A stretch of DNA of 22,162 nt from a virus. Lineage: Duplodnaviria > Heunggongvirae > Uroviricota > Caudoviricetes. Of the stretch, positions 1 to 22,162 are shown piece after piece. The notes under the pieces are model-generated. The model saw only the letters and a program-made list of their open reading frames with translations, did no database searches and was not told the DNA's origin. Position 1 is the stretch's first letter. Each line of letters starts with the position of its first letter. The translations under genes were made by a program, and so were the position numbers. The DNA lies in IMG/VR virus record IMGVR_UViG_2711768033_000004, one strand, 5' to 3'.

Positions 1-284
1 TATTCGGTGAACGCACTATGGCGACGCTGGGGCGTCTTATGAGCCTGCTGTCACCCTTTGACGTGGTGATATGGATGACGGATGGCTGGCCGCTGTATGA
101 ATCCCGCCTGAAGGGAAAGCTGCACGTAATCAGCAAGCGATATACGCAGCGAATTGAGCGGCATAACCTGAATCTGAGGCAGCACCTGGCACGGCTGGGA
201 CGGAAGTCGCTGTCGTTCTCAAAATCGGTGGAGCTGCATGACAAAGTCATCGGGCATTATCTGAACATAAAACACTATCAATAA
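1..284 (+). CDS. insB: IS1 transposase InsB, C-terminal part (5' end outside window)
   Basis: The frame is open from the window edge. Translation [55 protein letters not shown]...IKHYQ is the InsB C-terminus; TAA stop at 282-284. Confidence 0.9.
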
Positions 285-323: not shown

Positions 324-1166
324 ATGACATATCGTAGTGATGTTCAGCCCGAAACTTTTGTGGACAACTCTCGAGAATTGGTTACTGAAACACTTGCCTA
401 CTCGCTTGCCACTGAAGAGCAAAAAATACTCCTGACAGATATCTTCGAGTCTGTGGCGCGAAGGATCGAACTTTTTGTTCCAGATACAGCGATCCAGAAG
501 CGTTTCGGGCGGACTTTGTTAGGTATTGATCAAGCGTTGGCAATCGAATCATGGGTCACTACAAATGCAAATGCACTCGAGGGAGCAACCTCTGCCGATC
601 ACCTGTTTGATATGCTATGGCCGCTTTTAGTACTCTTATCTAATGAAAAACGGTTGAGCGACATAGTTCCTAATGGGGCACTTAAGAAATTAGCATTGGG
701 GTGGCTGGCTGGAGATTCGTTTGCAGCTCTCGTTCAACGGCTTGACAAATTGGGTGCATCCTATCCCTATGGTGCGAACCAAAGAAAATTTGATCTTGAT
801 GTGGTTGTAGACCTGTGTGAACAAACATTTGGCTTTGAGTTTGCGCTGTTGCTCGCAGCGGTAAAGGAATCCTTTCTCGCGTTCTCTTCAGAACAGGCGG
901 GTGAGGTTTTTAGAGAATATGTTGATCTTCTTCAGAAGCGATTGAAATATGGACTTCCGAATCAGAGTTGCATTGCCTTTTTTGAAGCGGGATTTGCTGA
1001 ACGCGTAATTGCCCAGTGTCTTGCAGAAGGAACGACTCAAGGTGCTATTCAAGTTAGTTTTGACGCCCGACACATGATTCGACAAAACCCAGAGAGATTT
1101 GAAGTAATGCTACAAGGCTTCCCATCTTATTTTTTTGATGTATTTAAAACAATCACTGCACCTTGA
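324..1166 (+). CDS. hypothetical protein (280 aa), possibly the 3' remnant of a gene truncated by IS1
   Basis: 843-nt ORF. Its reading frame is open all the way back to the IS1 terminal repeat (no stop between 285 and 324) and there is no convincing Shine-Dalgarno before ATG 324. I recognise no motif. Confidence 0.5.
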   Translation: MTYRSDVQPETFVDNSRELVTETLAYSLATEEQKILLTDIFESVARRIELFVPDTAIQKRFGRTLLGIDQALAIESWVTTNANALEGATSADHLFDMLWPLLVLLSNEKRLSDIVPNGALKKLALGWLAGDSFAALVQRLDKLGASYPYGANQRKFDLDVVVDLCEQTFGFEFALLLAAVKESFLAFSSEQAGEVFREYVDLLQKRLKYGLPNQSCIAFFEAGFAERVIAQCLAEGTTQGAIQVSFDARHMIRQNPERFEVMLQGFPSYFFDVFKTITAP

Positions 1167-3450: not shown

Positions 3451-3470
3451 GATGGTGCCGATAATAGGAG
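3451..3470. repeat. att-site direct repeat (gatggtgccgataataggag); 18 nt are the complement of the tRNA-Thr 3' end
   Basis: 20/20 identity with 16112-16131. It includes the complement of ...CTCCTATTATCGGCACCA, the acceptor 3' strand plus CCA. Confidence 0.6.
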
Positions 3471-3571
3471 CAAAACATGCACATAACAAACTGAAAAACA
3501 AGAAAATAATAATTTATTTAAAATGATATGCCCCCATACATGCCCCACAATTTAGTTCCATTTACAGCTCT

Positions 3572-3681
3572 GGAAGCATGGGAAGCATGGGAAGCATGGG
3601 AAGCATGGGAAGCATGGGAAGCATGGGAAGCATGGGAAGCATGGGAAGCATGGGAAGCATGGGAAGCATGGGAAGCATGGG
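3572..3681. repeat. perfect tandem repeat, 9-bp unit GGAAGCATG x 12 (plus 2 nt)
   Basis: Counted directly in the sequence: twelve identical consecutive units with no degenerate copies. No stop codon in any frame on either strand. Confidence 0.95.
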
Positions 3682-3951
3682 CGTAGGTGTGGCCAGTTTC
3701 TCAACATCAGGTGTGTAAGCACCACAAGCTGTTCTGGTTAAGCTATAAACAGCTAGCAACTACTCTCAACTGAACCTGAAAGCTCCTTCTCCTGCTTAAC
3801 AGGATCGGATCTTAAGCAAATTTATTAACTTAAGTTTAAGCAATTAAGCCGATTTCAGATCCAGCGAAATCGTATTACTGCCAACGCAAAAACACATCAA
3901 CAATAATAACGTAAGTATTTTGAAACTGACCACAGTTATATTTCTATCAGA

Positions 3952-5970: not shown

Positions 5971-7238
5971 ATTTTTGTGATCTCAGTGTAACGTTTGAAA
6001 TTGTACTTCCTATAAACTCTATCAACAAAACCTTTTCTAAAACTATTGCGCAATAACTCCTTTCTTTGGTTTACAGTGAAGGAATGTTTCGCAATACTAT
6101 GCAAACGTCCGTTGTTCGATTTAACACAATATAATAAAAAATCATCTAATTGCTTTAAGGATATAGAATTTACATCCAATCTTGCATTACTATAATAAAT
6201 TCCAGTACTAACCTTACCTTTCTCTAATGAACTTAATGATCTAATCTTCCTATTTAAATCTCTATTGCTTGTTAAAAAAGAAATTCTATCTAATAACAAT
6301 TTAAAATCACCAGTTCTATGGTAGGAGTAGAAAGCTCTTGCTATTCTAGTTTTAATTTTTTTTATGCGTCCACGAGATAAATCTACAGTTACTTTTCTAT
6401 ATACACTTAAAGTAGCACCTTTGTTACTTAGAGGAGAATCTATTACAGAAAAAGAGTAACCTAAAAAATCAAATTTATGGAGTAATTTATCTTTACCTGC
6501 CGTGCCTTTGCTTCTTTTGTCGATAAGTGGGGACACCTTCAACTTATTTGTATTTAAACTTAATCCCTTGGGTAACAAACTTTGTATTTGTTTCATTAAA
6601 GTCGATGGGCATTCATTTCCACTTGAAATGATCACCATATCATCTACAAAGCGAGAGTAATAAAACACTTCTGAATGCCGATGAATACTACTATCAAATG
6701 CTGCCAAATATAGCTCAGATAACATAGGACTAATCTCCAGTCCTCTTGGCAAACCTTTTGATGAATGGATTCTTTCACAAGCTTTAAGATACCATTCTAT
6801 CAAATTTTTAGTATGTCTGGATAAACGCCGTTCATCTTGCAAATATTGAAAGAGCTGAGGCAAATCGATAGATTCAAAAAAAGATTTTATATCTAAGCGA
6901 TACACTCGGAATTGTGCACCTTCTTTGAGATAAATTTTAAGCTCATCAATTATTTTATTTCTTTGTTTGGGTAGAAGTGACTCCAAACATTTTAAGTTTG
7001 CATTACAATGTCTAAGTATTAGTTTTTCTTTTAAACAAGATGCGTTGTAAACACAACGTCCTTTGATATTTATTTTCTTTACAGTTACTCCAGAACGAAA
7101 ATTTTCGCTGGCAATTAAAACAGCATCACTGATTAATGATTCTAATTTATCCACATTGTTTTTATTAAAATAAAAACTCTTCTCACTTTCACTCAAGTTA
7201 CGCTTAAGTGCTGATGAAGTAAATGGCTGCCGGTTCAT
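5961..7238 (-). CDS. reverse transcriptase (about 425 aa); first gene of the RT pair
   Basis: Motif A YRLDIKSFFESI, motif B GLPRGLEISPMLSELYL, motif C YSRFVDDMVIIS, LGYSF motif. The ORF track extends to 7322 with a non-ATG start, but ATG at 7238 is preceded by GAGGGGGG, so I prefer that start. Confidence 0.85.
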   Translation of the reverse strand: MNRQPFTSSALKRNLSESEKSFYFNKNNVDKLESLISDAVLIASENFRSGVTVKKINIKGRCVYNASCLKEKLILRHCNANLKCLESLLPKQRNKIIDELKIYLKEGAQFRVYRLDIKSFFESIDLPQLFQYLQDERRLSRHTKNLIEWYLKACERIHSSKGLPRGLEISPMLSELYLAAFDSSIHRHSEVFYYSRFVDDMVIISSGNECPSTLMKQIQSLLPKGLSLNTNKLKVSPLIDKRSKGTAGKDKLLHKFDFLGYSFSVIDSPLSNKGATLSVYRKVTVDLSRGRIKKIKTRIARAFYSYHRTGDFKLLLDRISFLTSNRDLNRKIRSLSSLEKGKVSTGIYYSNARLDVNSISLKQLDDFLLYCVKSNNGRLHSIAKHSFTVNQRKELLRNSFRKGFVDRVYRKYNFKRYTEITKIWL

Positions 7239-7637
7239 AACCCCCCTCACAGTACTATCCTTTATGCTTTTATAACTCTTTACATCGTTGCGCGCAATCG
7301 CATCCTCGCTACACTTGACCACTTAATGTAATAGTTTCAGTCACCTGCATGAAATTGTGTAGGCCACGCTGACAAGTTGGCGGCTCGCTGGTCCCCACCG
7401 CATAATATGGGCATCATCCCTAACAATACTGGCGGTTTTAGCGATATGGGAAGATCCAGACTCTTATTTGTTCACATTTAATTGATATCTCTGCAGGTGC
7501 GAAGAAAAGATGATCAACATCGAACCATACGATTTAGGATACCAAAAAGTAGCGAATCTCCCCCAGCAACACTTACATCTATTGAAACTGACTGAGTTTC
7601 GCGAATTGCGCCAGAATTGACCATTTAGCCCTACCAC

Positions 7638-7656
7638 GTGCGCAGCCCCGCCCGCC
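7638..7656. other. cos-like sequence (candidate P2/P4-type cohesive end site)
   Basis: The reverse complement GGCGGGCGGGGCTGCGCAC resembles the P2/P4 cohesive end GGCGAGGCGGGGAAAGCAC as I recall it, and it sits immediately downstream of the Delta-like gene where cos is expected. The match is approximate. Confidence 0.3.
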
Positions 7657-7856
7657 TACCCATTTCGCTTAACAGAATGGTTTTCATGCACCCCGTAAAT
7701 CGTCTCAGGAACCGCAACACAAGGGCTTTCGCGTCAAAATTGGTGCATGGAACTCATGCGTTTTCATGCGCCATAGACATGCACTCATACGTCCTCAAGC
7801 CAGCCAAGAAAAGGCGTAAAAATCCCGGCTCAGGACCGGGAGTATGTAGGGGAGAA

Positions 7857-8129
7857 TCAGACAGGGATTTGTTGGCGGCTGGAAAGCTTGGATGCAGAGC
7901 CATAGCGATTCAGTGTCTGCCCTTTTTTGTCTGTAGCCTCCTCTACTGTCTGCGTATTCTCTTCTTTCTGCGGGCGGGTGATAATGGTATGCACTGATTC
8001 AAGCGCCGTAAAAGTGCTTGAACATTCCAGATTCTGGCACTGGTAGTACGTTTTCTTTACAGAGGGGGCTTCGTACACACTGGCTCGACAATGTGCAATG
8101 GCTGAACAGAAAGGACATTTCAATGCCAT
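7857..8129 (-). CDS. Ogr/Delta-family zinc-finger late transcription activator (90 aa)
   Basis: CPFC...YYQCQNLECSSTF matches the Ogr/Delta Cys4 zinc-finger pattern. GGAGGG lies 8 nt upstream. The start overlaps the upstream gene's stop (TGATG). Confidence 0.8.
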   Translation of the reverse strand: MALKCPFCSAIAHCRASVYEAPSVKKTYYQCQNLECSSTFTALESVHTIITRPQKEENTQTVEEATDKKGQTLNRYGSASKLSSRQQIPV

Positions 8130-8890
8130 CAGATACCCTCCGCAGCTCGGTTACGTTTTTGTAGTTCCTCACGTTCCTGCCGGATCTTCATTTTATGAAG
8201 GGCTGCCGGAGAAGGAATTTTGCGGAAATCAGCAAGAGCTGCATAATCCGGGGCAACTCCCGCCAGTTTAAACACCGGGTCCTGTTCAGGCATCGCATCG
8301 TTAGCCAGAGCCGGTCTGGTGATATGTTTATGAATAAAGTCTTTCAGCACTGTGTCCGGGTCATTAACTGAATTCACCACACCCACAACAGCACTGGCTT
8401 CCCGGCCCATTGTTGATTTAAGCAGGCTCAGCGTCTGAATAAGCGCTTTTCCATGCGACTGCATGAAGTCTTCCCAGATTTGCTTTGCGCGAATTTCCAC
8501 AAGGGTGTTATGTGCGCTGATATACTGCCCGGCTAATTTCCCGGCTTCCTGCGGTAATAATGCATTTTCGCTTTCCTGAGCAGTCAGCAGCTCATCAAAA
8601 TCCTCAAGCGTTTCACGCCCCAGCGCAATTTCCGTACGCAGTTTTTTCATTTCCTTTGAGACTACGCCCTGACTTTCACGAAACAGCGTGCGCCACTCCT
8701 CATTCAGCGCGTTAGTCGTGGCTTCCATTTCAGCGCGGCGCTGGCGGATTGTCGCAATATTATCCGCTGCCGCTTTCTGCTGACGACGTGCTTCAAGCCA
8801 TGCGTTTCTGGCTGTGTTCATGGTTTCCAGTGCCCGCTGCGTTACAGCCGGAAAAGAGGAAAGATTGTTATTCACTGCGGTGTTGTTCAT
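8129..8890 (-). CDS. putative Sid-like capsid size-determination / scaffold protein (253 aa)
   Basis: Long ORF translationally coupled to the Delta-like gene, sitting in the position of P4 sid and of similar size. The product call is positional inference only. Confidence 0.4.
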   Translation of the reverse strand: MNNTAVNNNLSSFPAVTQRALETMNTARNAWLEARRQQKAAADNIATIRQRRAEMEATTNALNEEWRTLFRESQGVVSKEMKKLRTEIALGRETLEDFDELLTAQESENALLPQEAGKLAGQYISAHNTLVEIRAKQIWEDFMQSHGKALIQTLSLLKSTMGREASAVVGVVNSVNDPDTVLKDFIHKHITRPALANDAMPEQDPVFKLAGVAPDYAALADFRKIPSPAALHKMKIRQEREELQKRNRAAEGI

Positions 8891-9068
8891 GACTTCTCCT
8901 GTCGGGTTGATTCGTTACGTAAATTGTGTCGTGGCTGACACAAGCACACTATCGGTGCTCAGTGTATGGTGGCTGGCACAACGCGCGATTGCGGTTATTC
9001 AGACGTGGCTATGAAAGCCAGCCAGATAAAAATGCCCTCTGTTTCAGTCTGCTGTATGTCCCTTATGC

Positions 9069-9256
9069 GGTGGAACAGGTGAAACATGTGTTACTGCTTT
9101 GTTTTGTAAAGCATTTATATGCACTGCACCGGTGGAACATCGCGGGTAACAAGGTGGAACAGCGGATTGGCTGGCGTTACATCTGTTCCACCTCACTATT
9201 TCAGAAGGTGGAACAGGTTCAGCCCTGTAAAATACGGTTGTTCCACCTGTTTCACC
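9069..9256. repeat. iteron cluster: about 8 copies of GGTG(G/A)AACA in both orientations (candidate replication origin, crr-like)
   Basis: Copies at 9069, 9078, 9131, 9153 and 9207 on the + strand, and inverted at 9184, 9239 and 9248, immediately downstream of the primase gene. P4 ori/crr carry comparable TGTTCACC-type iterons bound by the alpha protein. Confidence 0.65.
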
Positions 9257-9290
9257 TGTTACCCTTAATAAATAAGACTCACGCAAAGCC

Positions 9291-11963
9291 TTAACCCGGC
9301 ACCTTGCTGTTGAAGACATAGAGCCTGCGGGGATTCATCTCTGGCGGGCGAATGGTTGTCTGGAGTTTGCCATCAGTGGAGGGGAGCAGGTATCCACGAT
9401 CTGCGCACAGACGCGCCACCTTGCGCGGGTCAAATCCCCTGCAGATTTCTTTCCAGCCGGACGGCATGACATAGAACGTAGTGACAGCTTCCGTGCCCTG
9501 CGCGGTACTGCCTTTCTCCACCCTGCGCCAGCCCACCATATTGCCGGGGCGGTTGCGCTCGTCATACCAGTCTGCAAAGCGGCTGTACTGATTCGCGGTA
9601 AAGAAACTGCGAACCTGCTCCAGTGCGGCAATATCTTCCTGATTGGCGGTGTGCCCGCGATCTTTCAGCCATGCGTTCAGGCAGACGCGGGTTGCCCGCA
9701 GTGCTTCACCCTCAGGCCAGCCGGTGATACCCAGACGGGTTGCCAGTTCACCCGCCATCGCCACCAGTGCAAAGCGATTCACAGCCCGGCCCACCTGATT
9801 GCCTGCATCTTTCGGAGTCAGGGCGGCAGCATATTCCTTCATCAGCGATTTTGCCTGTGCCGTTAGTCCATTAAGATCAGCGGTCAGTACTTTCAGCCAC
9901 TCCCGGAACGGCGAACCGTAGTAGCAGGACGTGGCCCATTCAAGATGCTCTGCCAGAGCCTTGCCGCTGTCGAAGCCGTGCAGTTCCTCAAAAACGCCAA
10001 ATTTCCCGGAATCGCTGGGGATCTGGATCATCCTGACTTCCATCCCGGCAAAAGTACGCTCACCGGCCTTTGCCGCATGTTCGGTCAGAGACAACTCGCC
10101 AGTTGAAAAGAACAACAGGCGCCACTGCTTACGGGTACGCAGCTCACCGTCCGTACCGGCACGGCCCTTGCCCTGACCGTTTGCCAGCATGTAGGCGATA
10201 TTGCCTGCCTCGCGTCCGTCAACTTCCCGGATCTCATCAAGCATCATGGCGGCATCGTTGCGGCGGCTGGCGCATCCCTCCAGCGCGTTGCCGGTGGCCC
10301 GCCATGTCTGCCAGTAGTCAGGCCCGCCGCAGACGGAGGTTGCCGCTTTCATGGTGGTGGTCTTACCGTCTGTCGATTCCCCTTTGAGGTGGTAGCCGCC
10401 GCCGTCCATACCAACCAGCCGTAACAGTGGTGCAGCAAAGGCCAGGCTGACAGCAAATGCCACGCGGGAGTTGCCGGCACAGTAGCGGGATACGTTCTCC
10501 CGCCATTCCTCTGTTGTGCCCGACACGCGGAAATCACGCCCCTGCACGGAAGTGGTCTGGAGAATGACACCCTCTGCACCTTCACCGCTGACCTCATCCT
10601 GCAGGACGTAAACCTGACCATGCCAGCCAGTACGGCTGACGCAGGTCACGCGGCGTTCCGGTTTACACAGTGAGATATATTCCATCAGGCGTGCGCGTGC
10701 CTCGCCGGTGGTGCTGATATAAGACAGCCCGTTAACCAGCAGTACCCGGCGCAGTTCCTCACCACTGCCGCTCAGCATTTCCATCGGCATCGCCCAGCGG
10801 CGACGCTCACCCCACGTATCTTCCCATTCCAGCAGTCGTCCGAAGTTACCGCCATCGGCATCGCAGGTGATTGCCGTCACGCGCAGCGGGCTGCATATTT
10901 TGACGTTCTGGATCTCCGTCTCACCGTTGCGCTGTACCTGCTTTTCATACCAGAGATATTCCTGGGTAAGACGGAACCCGTGCGGCAGTTGCGTGCGGCC
11001 TTCCCCGCACAGTACCAGACCGTTGCGAAAGGCTTCACGGGCACGGGTAATACCGTGCTCCCGATGAAAGTCATTCCAGTCAGCCTTAATCTCTCCTGGT
11101 GGCAGCGTCATCCAGCCGCCAACAGCTTTTGCCGCCCGTTCAGCAAAGGCTCTGCCGGGATTCTCACCCCCGTCCTGAAAATCGTTATCACCGGCGATGA
11201 TAATTTTTACCTCAGGCCAGCGTGCCCGCAGCGACTGCGCCACATTGGGCAGGTTGCCCGCAGATATGGCAGCCACTACGCATCCGGCAGTGAGCTGGCT
11301 TACCGTCAGCGCCGTAGCGTAACCTTCGGTAATCACCACCTGTACCGGTGGTTCAGACGGTAACGGGATGAGCGACACAAACGCGCCTTTCATCGTGCTG
11401 CCGGGCAGTATGCTTTTTTCACCCGTCGGGGCGATAAGCTGTGCACCGGTTACGGCTCCGGTGTTGGTCGTGAGTGGTAACAGCAGGGAACCGGCAGGGA
11501 AATCCTTACCGCTGATATGCTGCACGCTTCCGGTCAGATAGGCCGGGTATCCGGCGAACCCTTTTTCTGTCAGATAGGCGCTTTCTCCCGTGTGGCTCTC
11601 TTTCATCAGCGCCGCCACGGTAAGACCCATGTCGCGTTTAGGGGCTTTTTGTCTGGCAGGCTTAACAGGCAGTTCCTGCACATCCGGCACATTAAGCACC
11701 TGCGCCACCTCCTGCGCAGCCTTTCTGACGCTGTAACCGGTTACGAGCTTAACCAGATCCAGACCATCACCATTGCCACACTGGCTGCAGATCCACGTCC
11801 CGCGCCCGTCAAGGTCATCAAGGCGAAAACGATCCTTGCCCCCACATTTCGGGCAGGGACCGTGCCTGCCGTTTTCAGGTACATCAATACGCAGCATCTG
11901 CAGAATAACGGGCCATTTCCCCCGTGCGGCGGCTGAAATCTGCGTAACCGTCTGTATTGTCAT
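9291..11963 (-). CDS. P4 alpha-like primase-helicase (890 aa): Zn-ribbon, TOPRIM, SF3-type P-loop
   Basis: N-terminal CPKCGG...CSQCGNGDG zinc ribbon; TOPRIM-like IIIAGDNDFQDGGE; Walker A GESTDGKTT. High G+C typical of the P4 backbone. Start overlaps the upstream gene (ATGA). Confidence 0.9.
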   Translation of the reverse strand: MTIQTVTQISAAARGKWPVILQMLRIDVPENGRHGPCPKCGGKDRFRLDDLDGRGTWICSQCGNGDGLDLVKLVTGYSVRKAAQEVAQVLNVPDVQELPVKPARQKAPKRDMGLTVAALMKESHTGESAYLTEKGFAGYPAYLTGSVQHISGKDFPAGSLLLPLTTNTGAVTGAQLIAPTGEKSILPGSTMKGAFVSLIPLPSEPPVQVVITEGYATALTVSQLTAGCVVAAISAGNLPNVAQSLRARWPEVKIIIAGDNDFQDGGENPGRAFAERAAKAVGGWMTLPPGEIKADWNDFHREHGITRAREAFRNGLVLCGEGRTQLPHGFRLTQEYLWYEKQVQRNGETEIQNVKICSPLRVTAITCDADGGNFGRLLEWEDTWGERRRWAMPMEMLSGSGEELRRVLLVNGLSYISTTGEARARLMEYISLCKPERRVTCVSRTGWHGQVYVLQDEVSGEGAEGVILQTTSVQGRDFRVSGTTEEWRENVSRYCAGNSRVAFAVSLAFAAPLLRLVGMDGGGYHLKGESTDGKTTTMKAATSVCGGPDYWQTWRATGNALEGCASRRNDAAMMLDEIREVDGREAGNIAYMLANGQGKGRAGTDGELRTRKQWRLLFFSTGELSLTEHAAKAGERTFAGMEVRMIQIPSDSGKFGVFEELHGFDSGKALAEHLEWATSCYYGSPFREWLKVLTADLNGLTAQAKSLMKEYAAALTPKDAGNQVGRAVNRFALVAMAGELATRLGITGWPEGEALRATRVCLNAWLKDRGHTANQEDIAALEQVRSFFTANQYSRFADWYDERNRPGNMVGWRRVEKGSTAQGTEAVTTFYVMPSGWKEICRGFDPRKVARLCADRGYLLPSTDGKLQTTIRPPEMNPRRLYVFNSKVPG

Positions 11964-12343
11964 ACTTCCCCCTCATACAACGTCACACCGGTACTGCAGA
12001 AGTCATCAAAGGCCGCCGGAAGCGTGCGGTACATCTCCGCCATCACTTCACAGCCGCGCGCGGTCAGTACCGGCGGTGCGGTCAGCAGTGACGGCTCCAG
12101 CATGTCAGTCAGCAGTGCCAGCGCGGCAGCGGCGCCCTGCACTTCGCCGTACTCGTTAATCAGTACGCACTCGATATGCAGCGCAATGGCCATTTCAATA
12201 CGCTCCACCGTCAGGCTGTGCGGACCATACTGATCACTGCCAGTTTCGTTCAGCATTTTCTGCCGCCATGCTGAAGCAATAGCTCGCCGGTAAAGCGCGG
12301 TGGTCATTTCTGCCGGGAAAATGGAAACCTGCGGCTGGTTCAT
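11960..12343 (-). CDS. hypothetical P4-like operon protein (127 aa)
   Basis: ORF in the primase operon with 4-nt overlaps to both neighbours. Confidence 0.55.
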   Translation of the reverse strand: MNQPQVSIFPAEMTTALYRRAIASAWRQKMLNETGSDQYGPHSLTVERIEMAIALHIECVLINEYGEVQGAAAALALLTDMLEPSLLTAPPVLTARGCEVMAEMYRTLPAAFDDFCSTGVTLYEGEV

Positions 12344-12624
12344 CTGGCACCTCCTTCAATCAGTGCGCAACTGTGTGCAATATCCGTCAAATCTGCCCGC
12401 AGGTACTCCATCAGCGCGGCGACACCATGCGCACAGCCAGCGTCCAGTGCTCCGGCCTGAGACGGGTATTCAGAAAAGAGAAGCTGGAGCATGTCGCAGG
12501 CATTTCTTGCGCGGGTCAGCTTTCCGAAACTGTCCTCTGACAACCCATAGGCAAAAGCACCGGTATTGTGTTTTTCAGGCAAAGTGTGGCCCTGAGCACC
12601 GTTGTGCCCGTTTGAAATATTCAT
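12340..12624 (-). CDS. hypothetical P4-like operon protein (94 aa)
   Basis: ORF in the operon; 4-nt overlap with the downstream gene. Confidence 0.55.
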   Translation of the reverse strand: MNISNGHNGAQGHTLPEKHNTGAFAYGLSEDSFGKLTRARNACDMLQLLFSEYPSQAGALDAGCAHGVAALMEYLRADLTDIAHSCALIEGGAR

Positions 12625-12655
12625 CGTGGATTACTCCGTTTTCAGCGGTATTTTG

Positions 12656-13015
12656 TCAGAGAAACTTTGAATAGTGACCGTCGTCAGGCTCAGCAGAACG
12701 CCATATGCTACGCTCCCGCCAGCGGATAAATAGCACAGACGGATGCAGTGTCAGCGGGCCGGAACCACTACCGCCTGCAGGAGCTGGTGCAGGCTTAAAG
12801 AGCGGTACATCAAACAGGCGCGTATACCGCTGTTCAAACCATGCCAGAGGGCAGGAAGAAAGCTGGTTGTCGCTGTCATGACGTATCAGCACTTCACAGC
12901 TGAATTCAGGATTAACCAGCGCCACAGAGGGCGAGGCTTCTATTAATCGGATAATCGTGACCGTCCAGCCACGTTCATGCTGCCAGCGTTCGCCGGGGTG
13001 CGGATAATTACGCAT
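12656..13015 (-). CDS. hypothetical protein (about 119 aa)
   Basis: ORF whose ATG at 13015 overlaps the stop of the upstream small gene (ATGCGTAA). The track's longer N-terminus (to 13045) is probably not used. Confidence 0.5.
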   Translation of the reverse strand: MRNYPHPGERWQHERGWTVTIIRLIEASPSVALVNPEFSCEVLIRHDSDNQLSSCPLAWFEQRYTRLFDVPLFKPAPAPAGGSGSGPLTLHPSVLFIRWRERSIWRSAEPDDGHYSKFL

Positions 13016-13185
13016 GTTCACCTCCGCAGGGAATGCGCCCGGCAAAGCTCAGTACATAGTCCGGGGCAAGTCTGCGCCGCGCTGACCGCTCGTTATCTGC
13101 GGTGATCCTTAACATCACAGGACGGGCATTGCGTTGACTGCGGTTGATCGCCGCAAATAACCAGGTACACTTCTGTTTAGCCATC
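13008..13185 (-). CDS. small protein (58 aa), possibly Icd-like; first gene of the primase operon
   Basis: Not in the ORF track because it is under 60 aa. Translation MAKQKCTWLFAAINRSQRNARPVMLRITADNERSARRRL... with AAGAGGT about 7 nt upstream of the ATG. The Icd-like call is from memory of a similar small family and is uncertain. Confidence 0.45.
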
Positions 13186-13275
13186 TTCGTTACCTCTTAT
13201 AACGGTTGGTTAAATGCCCGATTTGTGTTCCCGCACAATCGGGCATTGCTTTTACAAGCGAACTATACTTACAAT

Positions 13276-13319
13276 GGTAATTACCATGTAGTCATCATAT
13301 TCTAGGGTAATTACCATGT
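13276..13319. promoter_or_regulatory. two copies of GGTAATTACCATGT (perfect 10-bp palindrome GGTAATTACC plus ATGT), 30 bp apart; candidate operator pair
   Basis: Copies at 13276-13289 and 13306-13319. They sit in the divergent region between the primase operon and the RHH gene, and the second copy overlaps the RHH start codon. Confidence 0.5.
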
Positions 13320-13489
13320 CAACACCACAAGAGAAACGTTCTCCACCATTCCAAATGCGTCTTACCGACGATTTTAGGTTGCAACTCGAAAACGAAATGC
13401 GCAAAGATGGAGATAGCGCGTTGGCAACTTGGATTAAAAGAATTTTACGCAAAGAACTCCAATCACGCGGGATTGACCCTAAAGGCTAA
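13316..13489 (+). CDS. small ribbon-helix-helix (Arc/CopG-like) DNA-binding protein (57 aa)
   Basis: Not in the ORF track because it is under 60 aa. Translation MSTPQEKRSPPFQMRLTDDFRLQLENEMRKDGDSALATWIKRILRKELQSRGIDPKG has a strand-helix-helix pattern. Its start lies inside the operator repeat. Confidence 0.45.
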   Translation: MSTPQEKRSPPFQMRLTDDFRLQLENEMRKDGDSALATWIKRILRKELQSRGIDPKG

Positions 13490-13521
13490 TCAGTTAAATA
13501 TTACTAACTATCAATTAAGGC

Positions 13522-13812
13522 TTAGGGAGTAGGTGATAATCTATTCCCTTTATTAATTGCTCTTGCCTTATTTCTCATTCCCTCAAAATGTTGACCTGAG
13601 TTTTCTTCAAACCCATCTCGCCACTTATAATAATCAGCAGCGCGCCATCGTGACATCCGACCTATTTTTATAGGTTTTGGAAAGCGATTCAGAGAAATCA
13701 ATCGATAAATCCATTTATCACTTAATAAACAATCGGAAGTAATAAACTTCATATCGATCAGAGAATCCATTGAAGGTCGTTGCAAAGTAGTATTATCATG
13801 TTTAGATAACAT
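13522..13812 (-). CDS. AlpA-family phage transcriptional regulator / excisionase-like protein (96 aa)
   Basis: KWIYRLISLNRFPKPIKIGRMSRWRAADYYKWRD matches the AlpA pattern (...IYRLI...FPKPIKLG.R...W...EW). GGAG lies 8 nt before the ATG. Confidence 0.7.
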   Translation of the reverse strand: MLSKHDNTTLQRPSMDSLIDMKFITSDCLLSDKWIYRLISLNRFPKPIKIGRMSRWRAADYYKWRDGFEENSGQHFEGMRNKARAINKGNRLSPTP

Positions 13813-13937
13813 TCATCATTCTCCGTTTATCTAAGTCTATTGGCTTCAACACGGAAAATTAAAACATAGGTTATAAATGAGAAAAATGTGACTAATGAAA
13901 AAAATCCAAAATCATTAGCCACAATAATTGTTAATAT

Positions 13938-14762
13938 TTAGTTAAACTTAATGTTTTTCATGCAACTACGTAGCAAACTAACAACAGTATCATAGCTCAA
14001 AGGCGGTTCTCCGGTCTTAGGCCAGAACTCACTGGCATGTTGAAAAAGATAATCAGCTATCGCTGCTGGACTCTCTCTTCTTAGCCTCATATCACGATGA
14101 TAGAGCGAAATAATAGCCATGAGTATTTCAGCTCGAGGAACAGCATGTTTTTGTTTTTGCGCCTCAGATTGTGATTTATATTTATTGGCGTTTTTTATCC
14201 GCTTTTGTTCGCATAAGACTATATCAATGAATTTTTGAATCTGTACCTTTGTAATCCACAAAACCTCAAAAAGATAATAATTTTCTTTTTCATCATAATT
14301 TACATAAAGAATTACCTTACAATTTATATTAGGCGTACCCGCCAGTAGAAAATGAATAGGCCAGGAATCCGGTTGCCCCTCATGCTTAACTAACAGATCT
14401 TTATATTCATAATCAACAGCCCATAAACCGGATATGAAACATCGAATAAAACCATTTTTATCAATTAAATTATCTTCATCAGGGATTCTTATAGAACTTA
14501 AGTCTGACAACATAATATTGCCATTTCTATCTCGTGGTAAATATTTCAGATTAGATAAGAACTCATCCATTTGACCATCAATCTTCAAACCACATGAAAC
14601 ATCATACTCATCATCATGGAATTCCATGCATAGCTCTACATCTCGTTCTCTGGCAAACCAGAGTATATCCTTTTCACTACAACCAATTTTTTCTGAAGCT
14701 TCCTCCAACTGGTAGTAATCTCTGAGCAGAGAATCAGTATTATTAATTTTTAAAATATTCAT
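13938..14762 (-). CDS. hypothetical AT-rich protein (274 aa) with a possible N-terminal HTH, translationally coupled to the integrase
   Basis: Its ATG overlaps the integrase stop (ATGA). The N-terminal segment YQLEEASEKIGCSEKDILWFARE looks HTH-like. The rest has no recognisable motif. Confidence 0.7.
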   Translation of the reverse strand: MNILKINNTDSLLRDYYQLEEASEKIGCSEKDILWFARERDVELCMEFHDDEYDVSCGLKIDGQMDEFLSNLKYLPRDRNGNIMLSDLSSIRIPDEDNLIDKNGFIRCFISGLWAVDYEYKDLLVKHEGQPDSWPIHFLLAGTPNINCKVILYVNYDEKENYYLFEVLWITKVQIQKFIDIVLCEQKRIKNANKYKSQSEAQKQKHAVPRAEILMAIISLYHRDMRLRRESPAAIADYLFQHASEFWPKTGEPPLSYDTVVSLLRSCMKNIKFN

Positions 14763-15949
14763 TTATGAGTACCAATTAGCTCAGATAAATAATTAGCATA
14801 CCATTGCATCATTTCTCTTCTCCCTTCGAGATATTGGGCATGGTTATAAATTCCACGAATAGAGTTTTTGTCCGAATGAGCAAGCTGGGTTTCAATCCAA
14901 GCGCTGTTAAATCCTTTCTCATGTAGGATTGTACTCATCGTATGCCTGAAACCATGCCCCGTAACACGCCCTGCATATCCAATACGTTTAAACACCTGAT
15001 TAATGCTTGCTTCACTCATAAATTTGCTAGGATCGTTGCGTCCAGGGAACATCAGCGGGTAGTTCCCAGTTAGTTCTTTCAAACTTTTGAGATGGGATAA
15101 TGCTTGTTTTGACAACGGGACAATATGGCTCCTACGCATTTTCATACGTTCTTTTGGGATCTCCCACACCGCATTATCAAAATCCACCTCTCGCCACTCA
15201 CCTGCTCGTAGTTCTCCAGTTCGTAGACCTGTCAGGATAAGTAAATGCGCCCCCAACAATACAATTGGACTTCCTGAATAAGAATTAAGGGCATTAAAGA
15301 ACTCCGGTAGTTCGTTGGCTTTGAGGAATGGATAGTGGACTGCTTCATGTCCTTGCATCGCACTGGCAAGATCCGGTGCCGGATTGTAGATTGCCCTACC
15401 CGTTACGATGGCATAGCGAAAAACTTCACCGCATCGCTGACGGACTTTCTTCGCTTTCTCCATAGCGCCTCGAGTTTCTATCAACCTCAGAACTTCAAGC
15501 AGTTCAAGGGGCTGAATATCAGCTATAGGTCTGTGCCCAATATGCGGGAAAATGTCTTTCTCGAATGCCTCAATGATGTCGGAAGCATAGCCCTCAGACC
15601 ATTTGGGTGATTTCATTTTGTGCCACTCTAACGCCACTTCTCTGAATGGGTTAAGTGTCTCAATCGCTGCATTTAAAGCCTGCTTTTTGGCTTTTTTGAC
15701 TTCGCCGGGATCTTCACCTGCTGCGAGTAGTTTCTTCGCGTCTTCTCGTTTTTGTCTGGCATCAGCAAGTGTGACTGTTGGATAAACACCAAAGGACAAT
15801 CGTTTCTCTTTACCAGCAAAACGGTATTTCATACGCCAGTAACGCGAGCCATTAGGTTCGACCTGAAGGTATAGGCCACCTCCATCAAACAGCTTGTAGC
15901 TCTTCTCTTTTCCTTTCGCAGCTTCAACCTTGCGGGCATTCAGCATCAT
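14759..15949 (-). CDS. P4-type tyrosine integrase
   Basis: Begins MMLNARKVEAAKGKEKSYKLFDGGGLYLQV, typical of a P4-family integrase N-terminus, with the catalytic region ...HGFRHT... It lies about 165 bp from the tRNA 3' fragment. The track's longer ORF starts at a TTG (16018); I prefer ATG 15949. Confidence 0.9.
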   Translation of the reverse strand: MMLNARKVEAAKGKEKSYKLFDGGGLYLQVEPNGSRYWRMKYRFAGKEKRLSFGVYPTVTLADARQKREDAKKLLAAGEDPGEVKKAKKQALNAAIETLNPFREVALEWHKMKSPKWSEGYASDIIEAFEKDIFPHIGHRPIADIQPLELLEVLRLIETRGAMEKAKKVRQRCGEVFRYAIVTGRAIYNPAPDLASAMQGHEAVHYPFLKANELPEFFNALNSYSGSPIVLLGAHLLILTGLRTGELRAGEWREVDFDNAVWEIPKERMKMRRSHIVPLSKQALSHLKSLKELTGNYPLMFPGRNDPSKFMSEASINQVFKRIGYAGRVTGHGFRHTMSTILHEKGFNSAWIETQLAHSDKNSIRGIYNHAQYLEGRREMMQWYANYLSELIGTHK

Positions 15950-16113
15950 TGGGGGCACATTTCCTAGACCGAACAGAACATGCCCCTGATTGTGCCCCCA
16001 ACCGCGTGTTGATTTCAAGAGACAAGGGTTGACCTCAAACGTATGAAAACAACGTAATATATATGTTTTTAAATGATTTTGTTGATGTGGGTTGACTTGG
16101 GAAAACTAGGTGA

Positions 16114-16159
16114 TGGTGCCGATAATAGGAGTCGAACCTACGACCTTCGCATTACGAAT
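16114..16159 (-). repeat. partial tRNA-Thr(CGU) (thrW-like) 3' portion, 46 nt from the anticodon loop to CCA; att remnant, not a functional tRNA
   Basis: The reverse complement reads ATTCGTAATGCGAAGGTCGTAGGTTCGACTCCTATTATCGGCACCA: anticodon CGT, T-loop TTCGACT, acceptor 3' strand and CCA. The sequence 5' of this does not match a tRNA, so no cloverleaf can form. Confidence 0.8.
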
Positions 16160-16549: not shown

Positions 16550-19500
16550 TTATCTCGTAAAATTAGTTTTATGACTTCCTGTTAGCTGACTGTCTTCATA
16601 ATAAAATGCCCCACTAAACTCCTGTCGACCATAATGATGACTTGATGTGAGTGAGCCCCCTATAACACCTTTTTCACCTAATAATGTCCAAACGATTTCA
16701 AAACCATTGTCCCTTAACATTGTTAAAAATGGTTCTTTTTTAACAAGTAGATGCGGCTTTGAAGCATATACAGCTTCAGCTGCAAAGCAAACCATAGTTC
16801 CATTTTCATCATTGAAGCTACCCTCTACTTCCCCATTTTTTAAGCCCATCTTTTCAAAGATTAAGTTGCTAGGCTTCAAAAAATTCAAAGCTTCTATTTT
16901 TGATTTGTCGAACTCCTCTCCCCACAAATAATTAATCGAAGTGACACTAACATCAGCTATCTTAGCTCCAGACTCCCGGTCTGTTACCGAAGTCCAGTCA
17001 GAACCACCATAATAATCTGATTTAAAAGACTTAAATGCTTCGGACCAATAGTACTCCCTATTAAATAATTGGTATCTATCAGTACATTCCGGCATCCACC
17101 TGCCCATAAAGTCTTGAGCTATTGCCCAACATCTAAAATTTTCAAATTCTTGAACTTTAACGATATAACTTCTGATCTGATACCAAACCTCTTTTCGTGG
17201 GTGCCCCCAATCATCGTTTCCAATAATTTTTGGTTCTTTCCATGATGGATAACTTTCTAATACTATCCATTCATCACCATTATCATCTTTAACTTCAATC
17301 AAAGCATATGGATTAGTTATAGTAGTAGAGCTTTTAACCCAGTCTTCATTAGAGCAAGTCCAATCAAACACTTCATCATTAAGCCACCACATTTCTTTAT
17401 TGCTTATTTTTTTCGTCCCAGTTTCTTTAAGTAAGATAGTGGGATCTATATCTCTTACGTAAGGCTCCCATGGCCCTTGGTATGGGTTTTCCTTTCGGTC
17501 GTCACCATAACCTTCAAAACGAATAAAATTATCGGCTAGCCTTGCCATGTATTCATAATAAGCAATCCATTGGTATTTTTTACCAATCCGTTCTTGGAAT
17601 TCCTCTCTACGTCCACGTCCAGTTCCTATTTGTTGATCAAAATCACCATGCTTCTCCGGATCCCAACCAAGTTCCAGAACACGATTGAATATAAATTGTT
17701 GAGCTAGTCGAAGATCAAAGTGTTTATCAGTTTCCAGCAGATTATTATTATGATCTAGGTATGGCTCTATTTCATTTTCAAACTCACTTAACAGATCGTA
17801 TGACAATGAATTCTTAAATAGCTTCTTGCTCGCCTTTATTTCTTCCTGTGCTTTTCTACCGACCACGCTACCAAATTTAATTCCTTCACATTTATCATCA
17901 TAAATGAAAGGATCTGTAGCATCATACAATTTTTTTTGTTGGTCAGTTAGTTTACATTTGAAAGTTTTAAAAATTTTCTTACGGTCAATAGGAGTTTCAT
18001 TAAACTTGCAACCAGACCAATCAGAATGATTGTAATTTGTTCCAATGGTATATCGTGAAAAGTCACCACCTCCCATAATCGAGCTCCAGAGTGCCCGATA
18101 AGGTTCTTTATTATAAAGAGACTCTAGTTCCTCTTTTGGAGGAATCTCGTCAGGCCAAATGCTGTTGTAGGGTGGCCTAGTCTTGGATAATTCAATACTT
18201 TCAAGTTCCAGTCCAAGATGATTAGCAAATTCAATAATCTCTCTCGCATAATCTCTAAGTAATATATTTGGATACACAGACTCAGAACAAAATACCTTTT
18301 GGTAAACAGTTTCGGCTAAATATTTTAGTTCTTTAATATTATCAGTTCGCAATGTACAACCCAATGCAACTGCAAATATTCTTTCCCAAACGTAAGGATC
18401 ATTTACACCATAAAACTTATCAATTATTTTTCTCAATACAGGAATTCTTGGCTCGAGTAAACTCACTAAAGCCTTGGTTGAGCAATCTCGAAGTTCTCGG
18501 TTACTAGAAGTTAAAAACCAGCATAAACTAGTTGCAACTAGCTCGATTGACTCATCCGAAACGAAGCTTTTATCTGTTCTGCCCCATGCCCAATCGATTA
18601 GATGCCTAAATGCTGAGTCTTCACTATATTTATATTTAAGTTTTGTAGTCCAACACGAATCTCGATTTCCCAAAGAGTAATCTTTTAGCCAATCATGCAA
18701 GAAATTAGCATTAAAGGGATGGTCAACTAAACCTGAAATAGAGATCACTGCCTCGAGAAAATGATCAAAACTACCTTTAAATTTAAAAACATGTTCATTG
18801 ATGAAAGGTCTGATTTTTTCGAAATCAATAGCCTTAATATCTCGCCATATCAAGCTATCAATAAAGGCTTCTAGTAATTTATGATTATTGCTGAACTCCG
18901 GCAGAAATTCATAAAGCTCTTTTCCATACTTTTCTGGCAATTGAATAGAAAGCGCCTCAACTATTCCCGAGTTTGTATAAAAATCACATTCATCATGAAA
19001 ATATTTTTTCAGACGACCATCTGACTTAAATTCATTTTCGATATTTTCAACATCATTTAATAAAAAATTAACGGTTAAATGATCATCAAACCTTTCAAAA
19101 GCCACATGAACTACTTCCTCAGTAGCATTATCATTATTTCTCACTATGCCTTTAGTCAATAATCCTTCGTCAATCAAGGCGCTGAGGAAATTTTTATCTG
19201 TAACATAATCATTAACTACAGATTGAACCACTGAGTGAGCATCTCTAAGTGAAATACTATTACTACCAATCTCTAATTTGAATTTTATGATTTCGTTGAG
19301 AGCATCTTTTACAAGAGGAAAACTGGGATCGAAATCATATTTTTTTGGCGATGCCAATGATTTATTCACCCCTTCCACTAAAAAGTTAAAAATATTTGAA
19401 ATCCCATTAAACCCAACAGGTACTTTGGTTAAACCATTTTTCTTAATGCCTTCACACAATAACTTAAGAAATAGAGGGTTTTTAAACTCTGGATTAAGAT

Positions 19501-21004
19501 TAGGTGATGAAGGCCTCTCTATATTGTAATAATCATAAAATAGACTAACCGCTTCTAACTCAACATTCTGAAATCCAATATGTTCATGAATTTCAAAATT
19601 ATTTCGCTCAACATTCTCATGTGAAATTGTTACATTTCTATATGTTGTTCTGACTGACATTATCAGACCAAGCCATTCAAAGCATCTGATTTCATCGACA
19701 AAACTGTTAATATTGTCATTCCAGAATTTATTTCCATTACCTTCATTAATAGCATCAATGAAAACCAAGACTCTTTTTCCTGTTTTTTTGCCATATAAAT
19801 TCAGTTTTTCCAGGAATTCACGAGAAGTGATTTTAAGCTGTAATCTCTTGAAGATCTGTGACCATGGAGATTCATCTGAAGTAAGTTGTTGCCCTAGTAT
19901 GAGTAGAGAAGGATATCCAGAAGCAATTCGATTTTTAATCACATCAGCCAGTAAATGAGACTTACCAATTCCAGCTTTTCCTTCGAGAAGTAAGAATGGG
20001 TTGTTAGCCAACTTTACTGTTGTTGAATTAATGAATGTACGTAATTCATTGCACGCATAGTCAAGTTCCCGAAGCATTCGCAGAGTAGATGAATACTTAT
20101 CACTGTAATGCTTGGTTTCACCTACTTGTTCTGACTTTTCTCGGAGTTCCCACAATATTGATTCCGCTCCGCCAATAGCTGTCTGGCAGCTGTCAACATA
20201 GTTATTAAATTTATTTATAGGAATTTGATCTAATTTAGAAAAATTAAGCTCTTGATATATATCCGCAATTTGATTTAAGGACTCGTCTATTACAGATAAT
20301 TCTGAGTAAATTACATCGCAACTATGTAACCTCTTTCTAGTCATCAGAAAATTATCTATATGTGAGTAAAATATTTTAGCAAAATCATCAGTTCTACCGA
20401 GACCATCAAATATCTCTGCTATTTCTAGCTTTACGTTGAGTTCGGGTGTGTATCGGCCTCCCAAGTCAGCTATTGCTTGACTATTTTTTTCATTTAACCA
20501 ACCATCACTCAAGTGAAAAGTTAGTTTGTCATCTATAGACCGCAAAATAAGTTTAACTTGAATAAGCTCTTCATTAATATCGAATATTTTTTCTTTATAC
20601 GTTTCTTCGATATGTAGCTTTTTTAACTTCGAACAATTATTGATTTTTAACGATAACATCTCATAAAAAAGGCTGAGTTGTTGTTGAGTTGGGGGGGTGA
20701 TGCTTGGATATTCTTTGAACTTGTCTAATAATATCCCTTTGTCAGGGAACTCTTTAAACAAGATGTGTTCATTCAACATCTCAAACAATGGTTCAGAATG
20801 ATAAAATGGAATTGCTCCACTTTCTACTGGATATGTTTCTTCAAACTCAATTGCCGTCTCTTCAATTAGTTGATATAATCTATCCACATATCTTTTTTGG
20901 GGGAATAATGCTTTCTTAATACAACCATATCCTTCTTGAGAGATGAATTGATCAATAAGTTTAGTTGCTACATAAGTTGCCACTGTAATTGATATAGGTT
21001 CCAT
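16550..21004 (-). CDS. large STAND / NACHT-like P-loop NTPase (1484 aa), candidate antiviral NLR-like protein
   Basis: Uninterrupted 4.4-kb ORF, markedly AT-rich. Walker A LLLEGKAGIGKSHLL (GxAGxGKS, NACHT-type) at about residue 340; Walker B-like RVLVFIDAINEG. It has an unassigned N-terminal domain of about 330 aa and a C-terminal region of about 1000 aa. Confidence 0.8.
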   Translation of the reverse strand: MEPISITVATYVATKLIDQFISQEGYGCIKKALFPQKRYVDRLYQLIEETAIEFEETYPVESGAIPFYHSEPLFEMLNEHILFKEFPDKGILLDKFKEYPSITPPTQQQLSLFYEMLSLKINNCSKLKKLHIEETYKEKIFDINEELIQVKLILRSIDDKLTFHLSDGWLNEKNSQAIADLGGRYTPELNVKLEIAEIFDGLGRTDDFAKIFYSHIDNFLMTRKRLHSCDVIYSELSVIDESLNQIADIYQELNFSKLDQIPINKFNNYVDSCQTAIGGAESILWELREKSEQVGETKHYSDKYSSTLRMLRELDYACNELRTFINSTTVKLANNPFLLLEGKAGIGKSHLLADVIKNRIASGYPSLLILGQQLTSDESPWSQIFKRLQLKITSREFLEKLNLYGKKTGKRVLVFIDAINEGNGNKFWNDNINSFVDEIRCFEWLGLIMSVRTTYRNVTISHENVERNNFEIHEHIGFQNVELEAVSLFYDYYNIERPSSPNLNPEFKNPLFLKLLCEGIKKNGLTKVPVGFNGISNIFNFLVEGVNKSLASPKKYDFDPSFPLVKDALNEIIKFKLEIGSNSISLRDAHSVVQSVVNDYVTDKNFLSALIDEGLLTKGIVRNNDNATEEVVHVAFERFDDHLTVNFLLNDVENIENEFKSDGRLKKYFHDECDFYTNSGIVEALSIQLPEKYGKELYEFLPEFSNNHKLLEAFIDSLIWRDIKAIDFEKIRPFINEHVFKFKGSFDHFLEAVISISGLVDHPFNANFLHDWLKDYSLGNRDSCWTTKLKYKYSEDSAFRHLIDWAWGRTDKSFVSDESIELVATSLCWFLTSSNRELRDCSTKALVSLLEPRIPVLRKIIDKFYGVNDPYVWERIFAVALGCTLRTDNIKELKYLAETVYQKVFCSESVYPNILLRDYAREIIEFANHLGLELESIELSKTRPPYNSIWPDEIPPKEELESLYNKEPYRALWSSIMGGGDFSRYTIGTNYNHSDWSGCKFNETPIDRKKIFKTFKCKLTDQQKKLYDATDPFIYDDKCEGIKFGSVVGRKAQEEIKASKKLFKNSLSYDLLSEFENEIEPYLDHNNNLLETDKHFDLRLAQQFIFNRVLELGWDPEKHGDFDQQIGTGRGRREEFQERIGKKYQWIAYYEYMARLADNFIRFEGYGDDRKENPYQGPWEPYVRDIDPTILLKETGTKKISNKEMWWLNDEVFDWTCSNEDWVKSSTTITNPYALIEVKDDNGDEWIVLESYPSWKEPKIIGNDDWGHPRKEVWYQIRSYIVKVQEFENFRCWAIAQDFMGRWMPECTDRYQLFNREYYWSEAFKSFKSDYYGGSDWTSVTDRESGAKIADVSVTSINYLWGEEFDKSKIEALNFLKPSNLIFEKMGLKNGEVEGSFNDENGTMVCFAAEAVYASKPHLLVKKEPFLTMLRDNGFEIVWTLLGEKGVIGGSLTSSHHYGRQEFSGAFYYEDSQLTGSHKTNFTR

Positions 21005-21526: not shown

Positions 21527-22081
21527 TCATTTATCTCCGACCGGAAACTTCTTATACAGTGTCGATACTCCAACATCATAGATGATCGCCACCTTCTGGC
21601 GAGGAACGCCTGATGCAATTAATCGCCCGGCCTGCGCCCATTGTTCTGGTGTAAGTTTGGGACGACGTCCACCAATTCGTCCCTGTGCGCGAGCAACTTC
21701 CAGTCCAGCTTTTGTTCGTTCAACAATCAGTTCTCGTTCCATTTCAGCCAGGGCACCCATCACATGAAAGAAAAAACGCCCCATCGGTGTGCTGGTATCA
21801 ATAGCATCCGTCAGGCTGCGAAAATTAACGCCACGTTCGCGCAACTCCTCAACCAGAATGACCAGATGCCGCATACTACGCCCCAGCCGATCCAGCTTCC
21901 AGACAACCAGAGTGTCACCTGCCGATAATGTCCTGAGCAGTTTTTTCAGTCCCGGCCTTTCGGACTTTGTACCGCTTATCTTGTCTTCAAAAATCAGCTC
22001 GCATCCTGCACAGTTCAGCGCATTACGTTGTAGATCTGTGTTCTGGTCATTTGTTGACACACGTACATAGCCAATAAGCAT
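21527..22081 (-). CDS. Pin/Hin/Gin-family serine DNA invertase (about 184 aa)
   Basis: MLIGYVRVSTNDQNTDLQRNAL... with catalytic-serine motif YVRVSTNDQ, then ...LVVWKLDRLGRSM...MGRFFFHVMGALAEMERELIVERT... and a C-terminal HTH. GGAG lies before the ATG at 22081. The 12 extra N-terminal codons in the track are probably not translated. Confidence 0.9.
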   Translation of the reverse strand: MLIGYVRVSTNDQNTDLQRNALNCAGCELIFEDKISGTKSERPGLKKLLRTLSAGDTLVVWKLDRLGRSMRHLVILVEELRERGVNFRSLTDAIDTSTPMGRFFFHVMGALAEMERELIVERTKAGLEVARAQGRIGGRRPKLTPEQWAQAGRLIASGVPRQKVAIIYDVGVSTLYKKFPVGDK

Positions 22082-22162
22082 GGTAGATCTCCCTGGCAAA
22101 AGCAGGAATGATGCCATTTGCTCGTTATTTCTGCATTTTCATAAACGTTGGTTTGGGAGAAG

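Follow-up and report, generated by a model that had tools for sequence, protein, structure and literature searches.

An allele of the antiviral STAND NTPase EcAvs2 carried at the end of a prophage at tRNA-Thr

We analyzed a 22,162-nucleotide stretch of viral DNA (Caudoviricetes; IMG/VR record IMGVR_UViG_2711768033_000004), here called the window, which holds an open reading frame of 1484 amino acids plus stop, with an ATG start, at 16550..21004 on the minus strand. Judged by its sequence, this frame is avs2: it encodes an Avs2 (AVAST type 2) protein, a pattern-recognition receptor against phages that works as one protein and belongs to the STAND NTPase superfamily, and is a natural allele of EcAvs2. 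Within a temperate prophage at tRNA-Thr it is the last of the cargo genes, lying between the serine invertase gene pinE and an attachment-site (att) repeat. Taken as a whole, an Avs2 protein that acts as EcAvs2 does and travels as prophage cargo is very probably the best explanation. The gene is already known, being named, annotated in RefSeq and placed in a curated family, with a 95%-identical relative for which there are structural and functional data. A preliminary description made from the letters alone had proposed an antiviral STAND (Avs) protein at this position. That reading correctly flagged a real innate-immune receptor, although the gene itself had already been characterized as a family member and a close relative solved at 2.3 Å.

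Identification as Avs2

The assignment came from defense-specific and curated libraries. The NCBIfam equivalog model NF041813 for Avs2 (cutoff 1000 bits) matched at 1692.8 bits, with residues 178-1476 covering model positions 1-1317 of 1317. The PADLOC Avs2 model PDLC02164 scored 1751 bits over residues 22-1483, and five further Avs2 models matched most of the length; the sole match outside Avs2 in the PADLOC scan was to mad8 and was not significant (E 0.023). The RefSeq avs2 product WP_044687640.1 is 100% identical to the window protein. A PDB sequence search with the full protein returned one entry, chain A of 9O4E (Avs2), aligned over 1-1484 without gaps.

Pfam alone would have left the protein unassigned. 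Its only matches, at residues 324-427, were sub-threshold hits to STAND and P-loop families (nSTAND6, NPHP3_N, NB-ARC, and NACHT), the best being nSTAND6 (18.9 bits versus 27.7), with NB-ARC at 12.5 versus 23.5. The NACHT family PF05729 reached 12.4 bits, and the aligned part was residues 338-357, that is, the P-loop only. Because this score lies below the gathering cutoff of 26.7, we regard the protein as a STAND NTPase by family context and not as a member of Pfam NACHT; of the “NACHT-like STAND NTPase” first proposed, the second half stands and the first holds in a loose sense only. The Walker motifs noted at the outset are intact. Walker A (GKAGIGKS) occupies residues 342-349 (19958..19981, minus strand) and the Walker B region (VLVFIDAINEG) residues 412-422 (19739..19771, minus strand), with VLVFID at 412-417, and both are identical in 9O4E.

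Could the frame instead encode a housekeeping or other non-defense P-loop ATPase, or be a decaying pseudogene that stays open by chance? In Pfam it has sub-threshold P-loop matches only, and these include AAA_7, AAA_22, and an Hda-like match, as such a reading would have it. However, curated Avs2 models match the full length, the protein is 95% identical to a functional, solved one, and the ratio of non-synonymous to synonymous change (dN/dS, described below) is 0.22 overall and 0.07 in the NTPase. Of 5426 complete E. coli genomes, 87 have the avs2 locus, and there it lies in prophage contexts. We found no match of the P-loop region to a housekeeping ATPase family, and a survey of homolog neighborhoods gave prophage or defense contexts rather than conserved non-defense ones. 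The Avs2 models, the identity to 9O4E, and the dN/dS values refute this alternative, whose probability we regard as negligible. The coding sequence is also strongly AT-rich, as had been remarked, with 34.7% G+C versus 42.4% for the whole window, and forms a separate AT-rich block in the composition profile; a chance open frame of 4.4 kb at 35% G+C is far beyond expectation. A scan for promoters and terminators around avs2 gave no excess over shuffled expectation.

Comparison with EcAvs2 and other Avs proteins

The entry 9O4E is EcAvs2 (Evans et al., Nat Commun 2026, PMC13601566), and the avs2 product of E. coli DETEC-E223 (WP_063118745.1) is identical to it. Co-expression with many highly divergent phage large terminases makes EcAvs2 toxic, the target being the terminase ATPase domain, and EcAvs2 without a partner suffices for defense and toxicity (PMC13601566). 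Its oligomerization requires terminase, ATP, and Mg2+; the complex with the PhiV-1 terminase, determined at 2.3 Å, is a flat tetramer of C4 symmetry in which the ATP-bound NTPase makes up the tetramer interface (PMC13601566). Three parts form the binding pocket: the elaborate TPR domain, the beta-rich C-terminal sensor, and, close to the terminase in the structure, the helical extension that links effector and ATPase. A second, bridging ATP contacts R1132, E1364, and D981 (PMC13601566). A triple mutant of these three residues substantially disrupts defense against T7 and Pal009, while an alanine mutant of E1362 partly lowers defense; other activators are Ksap1 and possibly the T4 protein vs.8 (PMC13601566).

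The window protein has the same 1484 residues and the same modules, all encoded on the minus strand. An all-helical N-terminal effector domain (residues 1-~163; 20516..21004) lies upstream of the starts of most Avs2 profiles. It is followed by a helical extension linking effector and NTPase (residues ~164-330; 20015..20515), which falls within all Avs2 profiles, and by the STAND NTPase module (residues ~331-620; 19145..20014), where the sub-threshold Pfam STAND matches lie and whose C-terminal boundary is approximate. The TPR domain and beta-rich C-terminal sensor (16553..19144) are placed by ungapped alignment to the 9O4E sensor. The preliminary description had recognized a region of about 330 residues ahead of the NTPase and had treated it as one domain; the region is there, as two modules, the split resting on the NCBIfam and PADLOC profile starts and on the published structure (PMC13601566). 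The domains then left unassigned are now described in the EcAvs2 literature (PMC13601566).

The two proteins differ by 74 substitutions over 1484 ungapped positions (95.0% identity), counted against a 9O4E sequence rebuilt from two PDB-search alignments. Among eight interface residues whose roles are named in PMC13601566, seven are kept (D981, R1130, R1132, W1266, E1364, E1444, and E1462) and E1362 is replaced by G. The substitutions are unevenly spread, affecting 1.8% of positions in the effector, 2.1% in the NTPase, 13.2% in the helical extension, 6.0% in the TPR domain, and 3.1% in the C-terminal sensor. The helical extension holds 22 of the 74, with 16 of these in residues 206-260, and the TPR domain holds 34. 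A codon-level comparison of the window and EcAvs2 alleles, covering the alleles H16 and H1 only, gave dN/dS of 0.07 in the effector, 0.07 in the NTPase, 0.43 in the helical extension, 0.28 in the TPR domain, and 0.23 in the C-terminal domain.

The values of 0.07 point to strong purifying selection on the signaling core of effector and NTPase. In the terminase-facing parts, non-synonymous change has been 4-6x faster than in this core. Positive selection is unsupported, as dN/dS is below 1 everywhere, even in the hotspot at residues 200-262 (0.46), where the synonymous rate dS is raised too (0.27). The raised dS favors older divergence or recombination over recent adaptive change, and we read the faster change in the sensor parts as relaxed or diversifying evolution, or recombination, rather than proven positive selection. 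A natural allele that differs mainly in the terminase-binding parts could nevertheless help to map how specificity evolves.

By homology to EcAvs2, the TPR domain, the beta-rich C-terminal part, and the helical extension would form a pocket in which the ATPase domain of the phage's large terminase subunit binds with the aid of a bridging ATP. Binding would lead the proteins to assemble, in an ATP-dependent manner and through their NTPase domains, into a flat C4 tetramer, and the tetramer would gather four N-terminal effector domains, which would then kill or arrest the infected cell (putative abortive infection). Terminase-triggered oligomerization and anti-phage protection are shown for EcAvs2, and we infer them for the window allele.

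The DETEC-E223 locus resembles the window in its surroundings as well, since it also adjoins prophage tail-fiber genes and a P4-like satellite bearing DRT3 at tRNA-Thr. The differences are the 74 substitutions, E1362G among them, and the upstream module, which is of the pinE type in the window and a lambda-type J-lom-stf-tfa module in DETEC-E223. More distant relatives share the principle and differ in the parts. KpAvs2 of Klebsiella pneumoniae (Bechon et al., Nat Commun 2024, PMC11564622) likewise belongs to the Avs2 family of STAND proteins, senses the phage large terminase, and protects through abortive infection. In contrast to the window protein with its rarer helical effector, KpAvs2 carries the common Avs2 type, an N-terminal endonuclease; it is encoded in an operon with Avap1 and Avap2, whereas the window gene has no adjacent Avap genes, and it also senses Ksap1 and Ksap2. 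SeAvs3 (PDB 8DGC) and EcAvs4 follow the same scheme, in which the sensor is bound by a structural or packaging protein of the phage, a STAND tetramer forms, and the N-terminal effectors are brought together; SeAvs3 has the C-terminal sensor in common with EcAvs2 and binds the same terminase surface (PMC13601566). However, SeAvs3 and EcAvs4 differ in the layout of the TPR domain, in the tetramer, which is elongated and not flat, and in having a PD-(D/E)xK nuclease as effector, and the PDB sequence search with the window protein returned neither.

The N-terminal effector

The effector can be delimited because the Avs2 profiles that lack this effector type start only behind it, at residue 178 in NCBIfam and at residue ~163 in four PADLOC models; hence its assignment to residues 1-~163. 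Mrr-like nucleases are the effector of most Avs2 homologs, and that of EcAvs2 is termed distinct, could not be seen in the cryo-EM map, and is suggested to lack enzymatic activity (PMC13601566). The window allele bears this rarer type, a helical domain named for its first residues. Its N-terminus reads MEPISITVATYVA and opens with exactly MEPIS, and direct reading of the sequence places the “MEPIS” helix 1, MEPISITVATYVATKLIDQFISQE, at residues 1-24 (20933..21004, minus strand). In 90 full-length homologs, helix 1 keeps a recurring pattern, M-(E/D)-P-(I/L)-(T/S)-x-T-(I/V)-A-T-(Y/F)-V-A, in which hydrophobic and small residues abound. The best-kept positions are mostly non-polar: L43, I47, F67 (invariant), L77, P105, F113, F117, L127, L130, and I140.

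An AlphaFold2 model, built on a shallow alignment, is all-helical over residues 5-130 (mean pLDDT 69, pTM 0.65; block means 66-88 over residues ~10-130), with helices at 5-24, 28-33, 36-57, 71-79, 89-96, 107-123, and 125-129. The alignment came from a homolog search with the effector alone, which had returned truncated Avs2 N-terminal fragments only (from frameshifts and contig ends). Searched against PDB sequences at E values up to 10, the effector matched EcAvs2 only. We found no significant sequence or fold similarity to domains of the Bab, Bell, or HeLo type beyond a reported motif of ~15 residues, and these fold searches speak neither for nor against Bell/HeLo-like action.

That motif comes from work on the Bab/Agp system (Ibarlosa et al., 10.1101/2024.11.07.622273). 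There, Agp (TPR-GreAB-C-PIN) activates a separate Bell-type executioner, Bab, through an amyloid motif. In the “Babybell” death domain of Bab, the first ~15 residues are reported to form a hydrophobic helix predicted to line a pore. Bell and Hell domains reportedly share this motif, as do antiphage NLRs, among them Avast2, in which mutations in the “MEPIS” region impair defense against T4 (10.1101/2024.11.07.622273). The cell-death domain of Bab moves to the cell periphery and alters membranes (10.1101/2024.11.07.622273). The window effector resembles Bab and the Bell, HeLo, Hell, CC(HeLo), and 4HB domains in that a hydrophobic “MEPIS” helix at the N-terminus leads into a small bundle of helices. 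It differs in being longer (~130-160 residues versus ~80-100). Unlike Bab/Agp, avs2 in the window has no amyloid motif or separate partner gene, and membrane activity of the Avs2 effector is putative.

Membrane-targeting action of the Bell/HeLo kind is the leading published hypothesis for this effector. We put at roughly an even chance that the effector is non-enzymatic and, once gathered, would free its hydrophobic “MEPIS” helix 1 to target and permeabilize the inner membrane, in the way proposed for Bab/Bell, HeLo, and plant CC domains. The evidence for this is circumstantial, and membrane action is inferred. A broader proposal, which we hold only tentatively, has two parts. First, the effector would be a bacterial counterpart of the plant resistosome CC/HeLo executioner, in which case the terminase-driven tetramer would free four N-terminal helices for insertion into the inner membrane as a pore. 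Second, the clustered substitutions would retune which terminases or decoys trigger the protein, with changes in the helical extension and the sensor (including E1362G) shifting the response to terminases and to the decoys Ksap1 and vs.8. Both ideas have already been raised in the literature for EcAvs2 and are not specific to the window.

The effector might instead kill enzymatically, or by binding a host partner protein and activating or inhibiting it, rather than through the membrane. The authors of the EcAvs2 structure themselves allow action via “membranes or interacting partners” (PMC13601566). Several polar positions are fairly conserved (T50 in 72 of 91 sequences, E53 in 65, Y68 in 85, S70 in 73, E134 in 69, Y136 in 75, and K137 in 64), and the effector has no fold match to known pore-forming helical domains. 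However, none of the charged residues is invariant in the alignment of the 90 homologs, and scans of residues 1-163 against Pfam, NCBIfam, and PADLOC found no enzymatic domain. The published analysis points to a non-enzymatic function (PMC13601566), and the MEPIS helix also occurs in the Bab domain, with its move to the cell periphery and its effects on membranes. We consider enzymatic or partner-mediated killing a possible but rather doubtful reading.

An exhaustive HMMER search of 1.84 billion representatives retrieved 218 proteins with the effector at E <= 0.001, and the match begins within the first 60 residues in all 150 of those listed. The lengths of the matches retrieved cluster at 800-899 residues (16 proteins) and 1200-1299 (46), and 10 more fall in 1300-1499. 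In a sample, the effector's partners were Avs2 proper, shorter Avs2-like NTPases, nSTAND3, NB-ARC with TPR, and TPR with PF20698 (“PIN-TPR-GreABC”); nSTAND3 NTPases accounted for 6 of 10 sampled proteins of ~1,200-1,300 residues. These partners independently reproduce the modularity of the effector that PMC13601566 reports. In two proteins (P0025 and P0036) the MEPIS effector is fused straight to TPR and PIN-TPR-GreABC (PF20698), the Agp architecture. The available text of the EcAvs2 paper mentions a PIN-domain-containing system fused to the effector and draws no link to Agp (PMC13601566). An executioner equivalent to Bab would be expected to show just such a direct fusion to Agp-type parts, and the fusion supports a functional equivalence of effector and Bab.

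In a third reading, an amyloid or prion-like signal in the first ~15 residues would template a separate executioner, as in Bab/Agp, and the window protein would be a sensor only. The first 15 residues of EcAvs2 have been called homologous to amyloid signaling proteins (PMC13601566), and some relatives of the effector do reside on Agp-like proteins. However, the preprint places the common motif in the hydrophobic helix of a globular Bell-type death domain and not in the BASS11 amyloid segment. Neither the interval between pinE and avs2 nor that between avs2 and the att repeat holds an annotated small partner gene or an evident open reading frame, and EcAvs2 acts alone in both defense and toxicity. 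An amyloid role is thus very unlikely, and a membrane-active executioner in the manner of Bab remains the reading we prefer.

Genomic setting and neighboring elements

The gene had been placed between a tRNA att remnant and a serine invertase, as horizontally acquired defense cargo, and the setting bears this out. Downstream, at 16114..16159 on the minus strand, lies a 46-nucleotide 3' fragment of tRNA-Thr that runs from the anticodon loop through CCA and serves as an att repeat, marking the prophage end and the junction with a satellite. The fragment was found by direct alignment with the thrW sequence, and the same stretch is annotated as tRNA-Thr in other genomes. ARAGORN and Rfam reported no tRNA at this att remnant, because only a fragment is present. 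A related annotation turned up at locus L002, where RefSeq gives a 112-nucleotide “tRNA-Ser” at 17695-17806 (NZ_CP098211.1, 3803694-3803805) in which ARAGORN finds no tRNA. This stretch opens with the same 46-nucleotide tRNA-Thr fragment, the prophage att repeat, and is probably an annotation artifact at a composite att site.

Upstream, pinE (21527..22117, minus strand) encodes a serine invertase of the prophage tail-fiber switch, supported by Pfam Resolvase (173 bits) with HTH_7 and by the RefSeq annotation. It is followed in RefSeq by tail-fiber genes, and we treat it as context and not as part of the system. The 522-bp spacer between pinE and avs2 is full of stops in all three avs2-strand frames, holds no plausible frame on that strand, and carries no RefSeq annotation. 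Neither Avap1 nor Avap2 is encoded next to avs2, which is a single-gene system. In the window the prophage upstream of avs2 has an e14/Mu-like tail module with pinE, while in DETEC-E223 the EcAvs2 allele follows the lambda-type module; different prophages therefore carry avs2 in the same terminal cargo slot. In e14 of E. coli K-12, the slot after pinE is occupied by mcrA.

The prophage that carries avs2 is part of a tandem array of mobile elements with other defense systems, which makes the window a compact example of elements stacked at tRNA-Thr, each with its own defense system. Directly abutting avs2 is a separate element, a complete P4-like satellite (3451..16131) bounded by 20-nucleotide direct repeats derived from tRNA-Thr (3451-3470 and 16112-16131). 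Pfam identifies its integrase (14759-16018) and its primase (Toprim/DUF927; 9291-11963), as well as AlpA and a Psu-like gene, and the RefSeq annotations agree. Its cargo end (3952-7322) holds the two-reverse-transcriptase system DRT3, with Drt3a at 5961-7322 (PADLOC, 434.6 bits) and Drt3b at 3952-5970 (664.7 bits).

Just inside the satellite att repeat, ~270 nucleotides downstream of the drt3b stop, lies a perfect 9-bp tandem array (GGAAGCATG) of 12.2 copies at 3572-3681. Megablast matches from other DRT3 satellites begin variously at window positions 3452, 3608, or 3686, in or beside the array, so the array appears to differ from strain to strain. We see no evident connection between it and the poly(GT/AC) product that has been described for DRT3. 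Elsewhere in the satellite, Rfam gave a sub-threshold match to the SymR antitoxin RNA (13179-13250, plus strand; 31.6 bits versus a gathering threshold of 61, E 0.017), with the AlpA-like gene on one side and the genes that lie downstream of the primase on the other. The match may be due to chance, or the satellite may encode a small regulatory RNA there.

A 459-residue FRG-domain protein (1567-2946, minus strand), encoded in the element on the satellite's left side, matches the PADLOC candidate defense system PDC-S15 at 324 bits and adds a further defense gene to the array. At the window edge, a 280-residue open reading frame (324-1166, plus strand) matches only the C-terminal quarter of HamB, the Hachiman helicase (profile positions 766-1036 of 1037, 230.7 bits). 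An 88-residue frame at 18-284 (plus strand), which has no PADLOC match, is in the same frame with a stop between the two, and together they may be the remnant of a truncated or disrupted HamB.

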